From an uncultured archaeon (GTDB lineage: Archaea > Hadarchaeota > Hadarchaeia > Hadarchaeales > Hadarchaeaceae): DNA of 16,811 nucleotides. The DNA is taken from assembly GCA_937921735.1 (NCBI GenBank), contig CAKZTQ010000055.1, positions 1-16,811 of the forward strand, given 5' to 3'. The position numbers were made by a program, and so were the translations under genes. Positions 6,383 to 12,553 of the stretch are shown here, in pieces (position 1 is the stretch's first letter; every line of letters begins with the position of its first letter). The notes below the pieces were generated by a model that ran no database searches, was not told the DNA's origin, and saw only the letters and a program-made list of their open reading frames with translations.

Positions 6383-6455
6383 GGCCGAGGTGGTGTAGCG
6401 GTCAACATCGGGGACTGTGGATCCCCTGACCCGGGTTCGAATCCCGGCCTCGGCC
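6383..6455 (+). tRNA. tRNA-His(GUG), with G-1 genomically encoded and no encoded CCA
   Basis: Acceptor stem GCCGAGG/CCTCGGC, anticodon arm GGGGA-CT-GTG-GA-TCCCC (GTG at 6417-6419), T-loop GGTTCGAATCC and C73 discriminator. ATAAATA TATA-like box at 6352-6358. Confidence 0.96.
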
Positions 6456-6467
6456 CCTTGATTTGGG

Positions 6468-6722: not shown

Positions 6723-6774
6723 GTAGCTCCGATTATAAGCTAAATTGGTCCACACCGCGGTGTAGGAACGGCGT

Positions 6775-6814
6775 CGATCATGAGCATGGGGCAAAGCCCC
6801 GCGATGAGGGATCG
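6775..6814 (+). other. Kink-turn hairpin in the pre-rRNA 5' leader
   Basis: CGATC/GATCG stem, tandem sheared G.A pairs (GA6782-83 with GA6806-07), a 3-nt GAT bulge and a GC-rich C-stem capped by GGGGC-AAA-GCCCC. Confidence 0.55.
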
Positions 6815-6868
6815 TTAGCTCTTGGTGTGGATAAAATCATGTGGATCCGAACAAGCCGGGCGACCGGA

Positions 6869-6899
6869 GGGCTCGGGTCCGAGATAGGTTCGGCACCCC
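6869..6899 (+). other. 5' arm of the 16S processing stem with a bulge-helix-bulge motif (pairs with 8416-8447)
   Basis: GGTTCGGCACCCC(6887-6899)/GGGGTGCCGAACC(8416-8428), bulge ATA, 4-bp CGAG/CTCG, bulge GAG, then CGGGTC/GGCCCG. Confidence 0.8.
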
Positions 6900-6925: not shown

Positions 6926-8401
<1,476 letters not shown>

Positions 8402-8434
8402 ACGATGCTATATTTGGGGTGCCGAACCCTCGGA

Positions 8435-8506
8435 GGGCCCGTAGCTCAGTGGTAGAGCGTCGGCTTTGCAAGCCGAAGGCCCCGGGTTCGAGTCCCGGCG
8501 GGTCCA
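8435..8506 (+). tRNA. tRNA-Ala(UGC) in the 16S-23S spacer
   Basis: Acceptor GGGCCCG/CGGGTCC with G3.U70, anticodon arm TCGGC-TT-TGC-AA-GCCGA, GGTTCGAGTCC T-arm and A73. CCA is not encoded. Confidence 0.97.
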
Positions 8507-10651
8507 CATTCGATGCAGCCCGTGAAGACCACTTCATGGGTGAAGGGCAAAATTGCGATTGCAAGATGATTGCCACGCATAGGTCTGCTTAGCGCTGGCT
8601 GGGTTCAAAAGGAAACGAACGCCTAAGCCACCTGGGGGATAGCTCGGCTCGGGCGCCGAGGAAGGCCGTGGCAAGCAGCGAAATGCTCGGGCGAGGCGCA
8701 GGCGGCCCTTGAACCCGAGATCGCCGAATGGGACTTCCTGGCGGGGGGTAACCCCCGTCGTTCGCGGCAGCGAACGGGAACCCCGGGAACGGAAACATCT
8801 TAGTACCGGGAGGAAAAGAAAGCAACCGCGATGCCCTGAGTAACGGCGAGTGAAAAGGGCAGAGGGCAAACCGAACCCGGTGGCGAAAGTCACTGGGGAT
8901 GTGGGGTTGTAGGACCCTTCCCAATCCCTAGCGCGGGAAGCCGAAGTCGGCTGGAAGGCCGCGCCGGAGAGGGTGAAAGCCCCGTAGGCGTAACTGCGCG
9001 GGGTACGAGGGAGGGGATCCTGAGTAGGATGCCTTGGAAATGGTGTCCGAAGCTGGGAGGCATCAACTCCCAACCCTAAATACGTCCCGAGACCGATAGC
9101 GGACGCAGTACCGCGAGGGAAAGCTGAAAAGTACCCCGGAAGGGGGGTGAAAAGAGCTTGAAACCAGGTGGCGATAGTTGGACACGGCTCGAAAGGGTTG
9201 AGTCTCCCCGAAGGAACCCGCGGCGACGCGGTAGTACGAGGGGAGAGGACCGGGGTCGTGTCGTCCGTCTGGAATCACGGGCCAGGGAGTTCATCGTCGT
9301 GGCGAGGCTAAGGGGTCAAACCCCGGAGCCGTAGCGAAAGCGAAAGGTCCGCATCGCGAAAGCGAGAGGGACTGGGTGCGAAAGCGCCCGGAGTCACGGC
9401 GATGAGACCCGAAACCGGGTGATCTAGTCCGGGGTAGGATGAAGCCGACCGATAGGTCGGTGGAGGTCCGAACCGGTCTTGACGTGCAATTCGGTCGGAT
9501 GACCTCGGGCTAGTGGCGAAAGACCCATCAAACCCGGTGACAGCTGGTTCCTCCCGAAGCTGGCCGCAGTCAGGCCCAGCGCGAGGTCGCCGGCGGCGTA
9601 GAGCACCGATTGGTGGGATACGGGGGGAAACCCTCGGCTCACCTGTCGAACTCCGAAGTCGTCGGCACCGTAGACCGCTGGAGACGGGATGCGGGGGGTA
9701 AGCTCCCGCTCCGAGAGGGGAACAACCCAGACCAGGGTTAAGGCCCCAAAATGCCGGCTAAGTGTGAAAACAAAGGGCGTCCCCGTCCTTAGACAGCGGG
9801 GAGGTAGGCTCAGAAGCAGCCATCCTTTAAACAACGCGTAACAGCGGACCCGTCGAGGGCGGGGGCCCCGAAAATGGACGGGGCTAAGCCGGCTGCCGAG
9901 ACCCTGGGGCGGGCGAAGTTCAGTAGCCCGATCCGGTAGGGAGGCGCCCGGCGCGGGGAGAAGCTCGGGCGTGAGCTCGGGTGGACCGCGTTGGGATGAG
10001 GATCCTGGCGGTAGTAGCAGCAAAGTGGGGTGAGAATCCCCACCGCCGAAGGGGCCCGGGTTCCTCGACAATGATCGTCAGTCGAGGGTTAGTCGGTCCT
10101 AAGGCCGCCCTCAACCAGAGGCGGTCGAAGGGGAAACCGGTTAAAATTCCGGTACCACCCAGGTACCTGCGGCAACGCAAGCCCGGCTTCCGACGCTTCG
10201 GGGTAGGCCGAGCGGGGTCGTCGCCCCGTCTAACTTGCGGAAGCCCGGGGAGTTCCGTAATGGAGAGAACCGGGCGAACGCGGGAATGGCCTGCCGCAAG
10301 GTGGGTTCGGCTGATCCCTGGAGCCCGTGAAAAGGGAGCCGGGAAATGGGACCCTGGGTGACCGTACCTAGATCCGACACAGGTGCCCCTAGGTGAGAAG
10401 CCTAAGGCGTGTCGGGAGACCCCAGGCCAGGGAATTCGGCAAGTTAGCCCCGTGACTTAGGGCGAAGGGGTGCCTGCTCCGCGAAGGAGCAGGTCGCAGT
10501 GACAAGGGGGGGCCGACTGTTTAATAAAAACGTAGCTAACCGCTAGCCCGAAAGGGTGAGTACGGTTAGTGAATTCTGCCCACCGGCGGTACGTGAAGGC
10601 CCGGTTCAACGGGCAGAAGCGCCGCCAAGGGGCGGGGGTAACTATAACCCT

Positions 10652-11507
10652 CGAGAAGGGGGTTGTAAAACCCGGCTGTATGCGGGGAAGACGTGACCGG
10701 GGATGGACTACTCCAAGGAGTAACAAGGTTCATCTCCGATGAGGTCGACCCGCAGGAAACCCCGGAGGGCCAGGGAGGCTTAAATAATAGAGTCCCTCTT
10801 AAATTGACAACGATGACGGAGTCGCTACCGTACCTGATTGGCGTGATGCTCGGTGATGGCGGTGTCTATGGAAACTCGTACACGGTATTCTGCAGAGACA
10901 GGAGCAGAGAGTTCGCGGAGAGCGTTGCCAAGATCGTCGAGAAAATCTTCAACTTCACACCGAGGGTGAACAGAGCTTCACCGAACAGTTGGATCGTGAG
11001 TACCAACCGCAGGGATGTTCACAGGTTCTTCGTGAAAATCGGGTATCCGAAGGGGAGGAAGCTCACGACCCTCGGGATACCGAGGATCTTCACCGCGGAC
11101 AAGGATTCAAGATTGGAGGTCGCCAGAGGACTATTTGATGCGGAGGGCTACTGCGGAATCGACAGGCAGAGACATGGGGAGAAAGTGTATAGCTATCCGT
11201 ACGTTGGAATAGACATGATCACCGGACCACTTGTCAAACAATTGCGTGGAATCCTGAGGGAGGTCACGATCGAGAGCGCGATCTCGATCAAGAGGCGCAG
11301 GGCATGGGGAAAGAATCCGCAGTTTTCGCTCGTGATCAAGGGTCTGGAGAGGGTCAGAAAGTTCAGGGACGTGATCGGCTTCAGACATCCCGAGAAGAGG
11401 GAAAAGCTCGATTGGCTCGTTGAAGGGGGATCCTCAGAGACCATACGCCGGGCGCACCGGAATGTGTGCGATGATATGGTCCACCCTTCCGAAAAAGTGG
11501 AAGGGAG
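10652..11507 (+). mobile_element. Group I intron (IB-like) at 23S position L1923, 856 nt
   Basis: Interrupts TATAACCCT^CTTAAGGTAG. P1 AACCCU/GGGGUU has U.G at the 5' splice site. P3 CCCGGC/GCCGGG, P4 TGCGGG/CCCGCA, P6 GGA/TCC, P7 GAGACCA/TGGTCC, J8/7 ATGATA, P8 CGCAC/GTGCG, P9 CCCTTCC/GGAAGGG and terminal omega-G at 11507. Confidence 0.93.
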
Positions 11508-11517
11508 CTTAAGGTAG
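10813..11517 (+). CDS. Intron-encoded double-motif LAGLIDADG homing endonuclease (234 aa from ATG10813)
   Basis: Motif 1 YLIGVMLGDG, motif 2 VARGLFDAEG, with KGRK between them and the tail F...IGFRHPEK. The ORF starts in the P6 loop. The GTG10693 extension runs through ribozyme helices and is unlikely to be the start. Confidence 0.9.
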   Translation: MTESLPYLIGVMLGDGGVYGNSYTVFCRDRSREFAESVAKIVEKIFNFTPRVNRASPNSWIVSTNRRDVHRFFVKIGYPKGRKLTTLGIPRIFTADKDSRLEVARGLFDAEGYCGIDRQRHGEKVYSYPYVGIDMITGPLVKQLRGILREVTIESAISIKRRRAWGKNPQFSLVIKGLERVRKFRDVIGFRHPEKREKLDWLVEGGSSETIRRAHRNVCDDMVHPSEKVEGSLR

Positions 11518-11522
11518 CGTAA

Positions 11523-11554
<32 letters not shown>

Positions 11555-12137
11555 GGAATCAACGAGCCCCCCACTGTCCCGGCCTGGGCCCCGGTGAACC
11601 CACTGGCCGGCGAACATGCCGGGGACCCCCGAAGGGAAACGAAGACCCCGTGGACCTTCACTGCAGCCTGCCGTTGGGGCGCGATCGTGGGTGTAGAGCG
11701 TAGGCGGGAGCCAAAGCTGGGTCGAAAGGCCCGGTGGAGGCGCCAATGTAACACCGCCCTCCTGCGGTTGCGTTCCTAACCCCAAAAGGGGACCGCGGTA
11801 GGTGGGCAGTTTCGCTGGGGCGGCAGCCTCTCGAAAGGATATCGAGAGGGCCCAAAGGTCGGCTTAGGCGGGTCAGAAATCCGCCGTGAAGGGCAAGGCC
11901 AAAAGCCGGCCTGACTGCGTCCTCAACACCAAGGGACGCAGGGGCGAAAGCCTGGCCTAGCGAACCCCGATGTCCCTCTTGATGAGGGCTCGGGATGACA
12001 GAAAAGGTACCCCGGGGATAACAGAGTTGTCGCGGGCGAGAGCCCCCATCGACCCCGCGGCTTGCTACCTCGATGTCGGTTCTTCCTATCCTGGCCGTGC
12101 AGCAGCGGCCAAGGGTGGGGTTGTTCGCCCATTAAAA

Positions 12138-12179
<42 letters not shown>

Positions 12180-12553
12180 TGCTATCTTTCGGGGGTGCTG
12201 GGTACCTGAGGGGAAGGTGGCCTCAGTACGAGAGGAACAGGTCACCGGCGCCTCTGGTTTACCGGTTGTCCGACAGGGCACAGCCGGGCAGCTACGCGCC
12301 AGCCGATAAGGCCTGAAAGCATCTAAGGCCGAAGCGGCCCTCGAAAATAGGTACCCATTTCCGGCGGCTCCGAAAGGGGCGCTCGCGCCGGCGACGGCGC
12401 GGGAAGCCGGAACAAGGGCTGGGGCTAGAAGACCCCGTTGATAGGCCGGGGGTGTAAGCGCGAAGCTCAGGCGACGCGCTCAGCCCGCCGGTACTAATCG
12501 CCCGAGGTTCGTTTCCTTTAACCCAAGGCGATGGGCAGACCTATGCGTGGCGC

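Follow-up and report, generated by a model that had tools for sequence, protein, structure and literature searches.

How is the 16S rRNA released from this archaeal operon, and does the signal that releases it involve the tRNA-Ala located downstream? Bulge-helix-bulge (BHB) motifs in 16S processing stems and a tRNA-Ala internal to the operon are both textbook features. The window, that is the whole 16,811-nucleotide stretch of DNA analysed, corresponds to all of contig C55 of a genome of 1.06 Mb (60 contigs, 83% complete) and carries on its + strand an archaeal rRNA operon of the Hadarchaeota, annotated with ARAGORN and Rfam. All parts of the 16S processing signal described below lie on this strand. 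The annotated genes are a tRNA-His (6384-6457), the 16S rRNA (6926-8402; RF01959, 1519.8 bits), which is the segment that the BHB proposed here would excise, a tRNA-Ala(UGC) and the 23S rRNA (8610-12517). tRNA-Ala extends over 8435-8507 according to ARAGORN and 8435-8506 according to Rfam (77.7 bits). It shows a cloverleaf, a UGC anticodon, the G3:U70 pair, a 3′ acceptor strand at 8499-8505 and a discriminator A at 8506. The source bin also contains a second 16S-like stretch (G000:C24:109-1545), 69% identical to the 16S of the window, which is possibly a contamination of the bin.

A first-pass annotation of this DNA had proposed that leader and trailer of the 16S pair in canonical BHB geometry. 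The sequence is as that annotation had it: leader 6874-6899 and trailer 8416-8441 can form a canonical 3-4-3 BHB, with two 3-nt bulges on opposite strands and exactly 4 bp between them. On the leader side, the outer strand CGGGTC (6874-6879) is followed by the 5′ strand of the central helix, CGAG (6880-6883), by the bulge ATA (6884-6886) and by GGTTCGGCACCCC (6887-6899, to 6900 at most), which forms the 5′ side of the inner helix in the 16S processing stem. On the trailer side, the inner strand GGGGTGCCGAACC (8416-8428, from 8415 at most) precedes the central strand CTCG (8429-8432), the bulge G-A-G1 (8433-8435) and the outer strand GGCCCG (8436-8441). Position 8435 is G1 of tRNA-Ala for both ARAGORN and Rfam, and GGCCCG is therefore tRNA nt 2-7, paired with CGGGTC in the order 7 to 2. 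Upstream, leader GGGCT (6869-6873) continues the pairing with tRNA nt 13 to 9 (8447-8443), U8 being bulged. The outer helix counts 6 bp (5 Watson-Crick and one G-U) plus this 5-bp extension, and the inner helix 13-14 bp. The flanking helices of an hBHBh′ motif are given at least two Watson-Crick pairs per side in the available excerpt of PMC7714728, as is the case here.

The rule that cleavage follows the second bulge nucleotide, and the geometry of the strands, were calibrated on the tRNA-Ala intron of a relative (L011; 15 nt, site 37/38), whose exon boundaries are set by comparison with other relatives in which tRNA-Ala has no intron and whose layout on both strands is identical to that of the window BHB. 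Application of the calibrated rule to the window predicts EndA cuts at 6885/6886 and 8434/8435. The predicted 3′ cut coincides with the 5′ end of tRNA-Ala, which is the RNase P site.

To evaluate this match, we used a BHB finder whose pattern is an outer helix, 4 bp, 3-nt bulges and an inner helix. The BHB is the only strong leader-trailer match in the window, with a score of 20 (6 outer and 14 inner bp, a capped count). When the leader was shuffled 500 times, the best score was 12, 295/500 shuffles gave no match and 0/500 reached the observed 20.

Conservation was examined across Hadarchaeota in 41, then 66 genomes and further fetched regions. This gave 24 distinct leader plus trailer sequences with both 16S ends, after removal of identical rows (six duplicates: L153, L038, L061, L066, L090 and L094). 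A tRNA-Ala directly follows the 16S in 18 of these 24 sequences, with a spacer of 27-53 nt. The 18 comprise 17 sequences from the order Hadarchaeales and the phylum outgroup L156, and the arrangement is conserved in 18/18, spanning five families and the outgroup. The outer helix is paired in 108/108 cells (18 sequences), with a compensatory change at one of its six positions: G-C becomes A-T in L159, by way of a G-U found in seven sequences. The extension to tRNA nt 9-13 is paired in 84/90 cells (18 sequences) and shows no compensatory changes. The first-pass claims that the outer helix uses tRNA nt 2-7 and that GGGCT reaches nt 9-13 are thus borne out by conserved pairing, and its suggestion to look for complementarity between leader and tRNA-Ala 5′ sequences in related operons finds a positive answer among the Hadarchaeota compared here. 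The central helix is paired in 64/72 cells (18 sequences), one of four positions being compensatory; a double change of CGAG/CTCG to TGAG/CTCA is seen in family f5 (L014, L017). For the inner helix, pairing reaches 216/234 cells (18 sequences) with compensatory changes at 10/13 positions. As a register control, central and outer helices were scored together: 172/180 cells are paired at shift 0, compared to at most 108/180 when the trailer partner is slid by one to three bases in either direction. The two unpaired bulge bases that precede G1 differ between sequences (GA, TT, TG, AA, AT), as fits bulge positions. No other BHB between leader and trailer was found with the finder, and a scan of L002 returned a single match. 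Together, these comparisons support a canonical BHB, conserved with covariation across the order.

Two further observations came from this search. On a contig labelled as an Actinomycetota MAG (L107) lies a Hadarchaeal 16S-tRNA-Ala operon almost identical to that of the window's genus; the contig is probably mis-binned. L158 (G029) and L159 (G016) each have a ~900-nt intron in the 16S, inserted at one shared site around position 870 of the query (1721 bases).

The first-pass annotation had placed the predicted cut exactly at G1. This stands for the window and, exclusively, for 12/17 order sequences. L006 and L010 (2/17) permit either G1 or -1, and 14/17 sequences in all allow a 3-4-3 BHB with a cut at G1. 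It does not extend to L008 and L158 (2/17), which have a GAGA/TCTC central helix with 2-nt bulges, nor to L155 (1/17), a canonical BHB with 3-nt bulges and a cut at -1 only, whose source is a MAG with 4% contamination and whose inner helix has just 8 bp. These register variants argue that exact generation of the 5′ end by EndA is not the selected property; they favour ligation of the leader to G1, after which RNase P would set the final end.

In the outgroup L156 (G041, family f6), a canonical BHB (GCCA/TGGT, ata/ata bulges) lies 19 nt before the tRNA. Its outer helix has 15 bp; beyond a 5x3 loop, the leader pairs again over 8 bp, with tRNA positions -1 to +7. That the leader pairs with the 5′ strand of the tRNA is therefore common to the phylum. 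Judged from these sequences, it is the immediate contact of BHB and tRNA that characterises the order, and the two positions (-19 in the outgroup, 0 in the order) suggest that the BHB moved along the processing stem in evolution.

The six remaining sequences belong to genus g7 (L009, L011, L012, L160, L161, L162). Here no tRNA is adjacent and the inner helix is followed by a T-run, which we read as a terminator; the 16S is unlinked in this genus. The tRNA-Ala was located in three of six cases (L011, L162 and G021/L164), from ~0.1 kb (L162) to 1.7 kb downstream, with a leader and an apparent promoter of its own (a candidate identified by eye). The tRNA-Ala of L164 carries a 15-nt intron at 37/38, like that of L011. 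The g7 leaders keep the elements named A, small hairpin and A′ (described below) and CGAG-ATA almost unchanged. Since these are kept without an adjacent tRNA, the leader element must have some tRNA-independent role.

Is there an alternative to the BHB fold? The first-pass annotation had named a mutually exclusive fold, TCCGAG/CTCGGA. Such a fold is present in the window, and the idea that some pair of exclusive folds exists proves real, but the GA at -2/-1 that this one needs occurs in only 7/18 sequences and we reject it as a conserved feature. The conserved competitor, which that annotation missed, is a leader hairpin formed by A and A′ (6843-6849 with 6874-6880). Strand A, GGATCCG (6843-6849), is a new element. 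Strand A′, CGGGTCC (6874-6880), whose first six nucleotides are the outer strand of the BHB, is identical in sequence to the 3′ acceptor strand of the tRNA, and A is consequently complementary to both. A:A′ pairing is found in 167/168 cells (24 sequences) and pairing of A with the tRNA 3′ strand in 125/126 cells (18 sequences). Just upstream of A, leader ATGT (6839-6842) can pair with the discriminator A73 and the following CAT (8506-8509), which would extend the A:tRNA-3′ helix. This is seen in 54/72 cells (18 sequences), G-C(+1) in 17/18 and T-A73 in 16/18. The ATGT motif is also invariant in the six sequences that have no adjacent tRNA, so its conservation is not explained by tRNA pairing alone. 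The stretch GTGTGGAT (6825-6832) recurs as ATGTGGAT (6839-6846), and both copies are kept in relatives, including those without adjacent tRNA. Between A and A′ lies a small hairpin, CCGG-GCGA-CCGG (6856-6867), whose stem covaries (the window has CCGG/CCGG, the majority of relatives CCAG/CTGG) and which is absent from family f5 and from the outgroup f6.

Two pairing forms can thus be drawn from the same four strands. Form 1 consists of the A:A′ leader hairpin and the tRNA acceptor stem. Form 2 consists of A′ paired with the tRNA 5′ strand (the BHB outer helix) and A paired with the tRNA 3′ strand. We propose, from this model, that both forms could interconvert by branch migration at a four-way junction. 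Covariation cannot separate A:A′, A′:tRNA-5′ and A:tRNA-3′, since all four strands change jointly. Nearest-neighbour energies of the BHB/swapped form and of the tRNA plus leader hairpin are respectively -101.5 and -91.1 kcal/mol at 37 C, which makes the swapped form the more stable of the two in a model that ignores tRNA tertiary structure, modifications and proteins. At 70 C, the values are -50.6 and -41.8 kcal/mol. For the ligated leader-tRNA, they are -68.1 (swapped) and -59.4 kcal/mol, and part of the stability of the swapped form in the window is due to a leader:T-arm pairing that relatives lack. This pairing, which belongs to the minimum-energy fold of the window, was rejected as a general feature: the small-hairpin and T-stem sequences of relatives are non-complementary. 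If the acceptor stem is imposed as a constraint, the A:A′ hairpin arises unaided in the predicted fold, and under the same constraint the ligated RNA is predicted to fold into the leader hairpin, a 4-nt linker (AGAU) and the cloverleaf. Inspection by eye of the internal loop of the leader hairpin gave no tandem G-A motif of a K-turn. The hairpin was also considered as a minihelix for RNase P or tRNase Z and discarded for want of a continuous 12-bp stack; this idea survives only within one of the rival explanations weighed below.

A single EndA catalytic domain (121.7 bits) is encoded in the genome, within an ORF of 182 aa (L151 1474-2022, minus strand); from its size we take this EndA to be of the homotetramer type, a type that presumably needs canonical BHBs. 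The genome also encodes RtcB (606 bits), RNase P RNA (201 bits) and a Clp1-type kinase domain (CLP1_P, 129.4 bits). The latter also matches in the control genomes of Methanocaldococcus jannaschii and Sulfolobus acidocaldarius and is therefore not specific. Among the sequencing runs searched, none holds at least half of the sampled words. In the four runs that were mapped, reads came almost all from the conserved 16S of other organisms, none specific to this organism fell on the leader or the tRNA, and the joints 6885/8435 and 8434/6886 were absent, an absence that weighs neither for nor against cleavage; raw-read depth in one run was 0 on 6750-6875 and 8451-8620. PMC12918454 reports high expression of Hadarchaeota in wetland Illumina and Nanopore data.

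The 23S rRNA has its own processing stem, a long helix of 8572-8605 with 12520-12551 that includes at least 17 perfect bp. In this stem of the window operon the finder detected no canonical BHB; close to the 23S, 4 bp lie between a 1x1 mismatch and a 3x1 loop. Since the 23S stem is without a canonical BHB, use of EndA on rRNA in this lineage is not self-evident. The 23S itself carries an 861-nt insertion (10653-11513) directly 3′ of what corresponds to helix 69 of E. coli. An ORF inside it (10693-11514) matches LAGLIDADG_3 (1.3e-12). At the ends of this insertion, taken for this purpose as an intron of 10653-11508, the strict finder gave no canonical 3-4-3 BHB, and a relaxed reading fits the cut rule.

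The reading that we favour, with a probability of roughly 55%, is that the BHB is an EndA site for excision of pre-16S whose exon-side helix is made of the leader and the first 7-13 nt of tRNA-Ala, excision being followed by ligation, refolding and RNase P cleavage. From the structure, its conservation, covariation and register, the alternative pairing and the enzyme genes, we infer that EndA would cut here, and in what order ligation and a final RNase P step would follow. Once the trailer is transcribed, it would zip up with the leader into the inner and central helices. The tRNA 5′ strand would then displace A from A′ to complete the BHB, and the freed A could hold the tRNA 3′ acceptor strand. 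While the outer helix exists, the tRNA would have neither acceptor nor D stem and the transcript would stay whole. With both stems blocked by the outer helix, the tRNA would be shielded from RNase P and, since A can hold the 3′ acceptor strand, probably from tRNase Z as well. EndA would cut both bulges, at 6885/6886 and 8434/8435, and RtcB would close pre-16S into a circle and ligate the leader to G1 of the tRNA. The strands could then swap by branch migration, giving the A:A′ leader hairpin and a tRNA with closed acceptor stem, from which RNase P would remove the leader at the same phosphodiester, 8434/8435. In Haloferax mutants, as reported in the part available of Juttner et al. 2020 (PMC7038931), 16S processing at the BHB was inferred to precede that of the internal tRNA, the processing of which was inferred to be rate-limited; the leader-tRNA structure would offer a direct mechanism for this order.

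Other explanations of the same structure have to be weighed. EndA alone might make the 5′ end of tRNA-Ala: the leader would not be ligated, a Clp1-type kinase would phosphorylate the 5′-OH at G1 and RNase P would be unneeded. A cut confined to G1 in 12/17 order sequences and possible there in two more, the 2-nt gap from central helix to G1, kept while both bases vary, and the encoded CLP1_P domain all agree with it. However, L155 is at -1 only, the register is ambiguous in two sequences and the bulges measure 2 nt in two others; the genome has an RNase P RNA and, as the g7 tRNA-Ala with its own leader and apparent promoter indicates, this tRNA can be processed by RNase P; the outer helix would keep both exon ends together, favouring RtcB ligation; and the Clp1 domain is unspecific. 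Such direct formation of the 5′ end appears rather unlikely to us. With about the same reserve we entertain a contested bond in Hadarchaeales, in which 8434/8435 would be attacked by EndA in the BHB fold and by RNase P in the tRNA fold, the four-strand exchange, similar to a Holliday junction, choosing between them and a Clp1-type kinase phosphorylating the tRNA 5′ end made on the EndA branch without RNase P. EndA would leave a cyclic phosphate and a 5′-OH, permitting a circular pre-16S, and RNase P a 3′-OH and a 5′-phosphate, barring circularisation. If true, this would be the first tRNA with a 5′ terminus generated by the splicing endonuclease.

Alternatively, the transcript could fold natively as it is made. 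The A:A′ hairpin would then be an independent element that resembles an acceptor stem and acts as a signal for processing or protein binding, or as one (outer) helix of a half-BHB. Its match to the tRNA would be a by-product of this mimicry, and at 8434/8435 RNase P and tRNase Z would cut instead of EndA. A:A′ is indeed paired in all but one of its 168 cells, all six sequences without adjacent tRNA included; in L008, L158, L013, L015 and L006 the A:A′ stem is a copy of the acceptor stem of tRNA-Ala, down to its G-U at position 3; and L156 retains both A:A′ and the leader:tRNA helix although its BHB is at -19. Yet a perfect 3-4-3 BHB in exact register is an unlikely by-product, as a one-base slide lowers pairing from 172/180 to at most 108/180 cells. 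The f5 change TGAG/CTCA (L014, L017) keeps a Watson-Crick T-A pair with the trailer, compared to only a G-U wobble with strand A, and no other BHB was found to release the 16S. Furthermore, cleavage by RNase P leaves a 3′-OH, unusable by RtcB, which would bar circularisation of pre-16S. We regard native folding as rather unlikely, too. As for chance complementarity in a G+C-rich sequence, the outer helix shows little variation, given the high G+C content of both strands and the constraint that the tRNA side is under in any case. No shuffle equalled the observed score, however, the arrangement is kept in all 18 adjacent cases over five families and the outgroup, the change in L159 is compensatory and the register control is clear. 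A chance match is effectively refuted by the shuffles and the conservation, and we give it hardly any weight.

Under excision by EndA followed by ligation to G1, the cutting signal that releases the 16S would share bases with tRNA-Ala and would tie rRNA release to tRNA maturation. That the internal tRNA is held back until 16S and 23S are handled has so far been inferred just from Haloferax genetics (PMC7038931, available part). This operon would offer a sequence-encoded mechanism, the leader holding the acceptor strands until 16S excision and the competitor strand releasing them. It also illustrates how a BHB may migrate along a stem, from -19 in the phylum outgroup to 0 in the order. A 182-aa EndA and a mini-substrate of ~200 nt would make a simple in vitro system in which EndA and RNase P compete for a single bond.

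According to the excerpts available, Euryarchaeota such as Haloferax volcanii, Methanococcus maripaludis and Thermococcus barophilus have 16S and 23S stems with BHBs (PMC7038931, PMC7714728, PMC10515664, bioRxiv 10.64898/2026.03.23.713588), of the same 3-nt bulge, 4 bp, 3-nt bulge layout. In the same excerpts, EndA cuts and RtcB ligates to give a circular pre-16S and a ligated leader-spacer, and the tRNA-Ala between 16S and 23S is assigned to RNase P and tRNase Z. A BHB with a tRNA as one of its helices is not mentioned in the parts available of the archaeal rRNA-processing literature searched (PMC10351888, PMC10515664, PMC7038931, PMC12918454, PMC7714728, PMC8997704, bioRxiv 10.64898/2026.03.23.713588), a coverage outside which older key work lies (Tang 2002, Qi 2020). 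Within these partial sources, a BHB that takes the tRNA acceptor strand as exon helix, has its predicted cut where RNase P acts and brings its own competitor strand is apparently undescribed, consistent with the first-pass remark that no description of the motif was known.

The same finder was applied to other lineages with spacers of 20-50 nt (Thermococcales being outside this sample). Among the matches listed, six other lineages have a predicted 16S 3′ cut 10-24 nt upstream of tRNA G1: Methanothermococcus (-20), an Archaeoglobus MAG (L166; -16, outer helix reaching G1), an Archaeoglobaceae MAG (-17, with 4-nt bulges), Theionarchaea (-24), Methanolliviera (L034/L085; -10, outer helix reaching +3) and Methanoliparum (-10). 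In these lineages the outer helix is mainly spacer, whereas here the spacer piece shrinks to 0 nt and the acceptor strand of the tRNA itself makes up the outer helix. Archaeoglobus L166, Methanolliviera and the outgroup L156 resemble the order in that leader or stem pairing reaches up to or into the tRNA. They differ by a cut 10-19 nt upstream, so that the ligated product would retain spacer. From their sequences, Hadarchaeales look like the end point of a series of stems running up to the tRNA.

Two known systems are close to this arrangement. BHB-dependent joining of split and permuted tRNAs and non-canonical tRNA introns have reportedly been described by Marck and Grosjean in 2003 and in work on Caldivirga and Cyanidioschyzon. 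In these cases, exon helices are likewise built from the tRNA body and flanking leader, and EndA cutting is coupled to tRNA folding. There, however, the cuts are internal and the exons are rejoined into the tRNA, whereas here the predicted cut is the tRNA 5′ terminus and the 'intron' would be the 16S rRNA. In Haloferax, a tRNA-like element upstream of 5S rRNA is said to be cut by tRNase Z (Holzle and co-workers, 2008). It resembles our locus as a tRNA look-alike within an rRNA operon, A:A′ in the leader copying the tRNA-Ala acceptor stem; it differs in that the leader hairpin described here has no T-arm stack and no adjacent cleavage is known or predicted.
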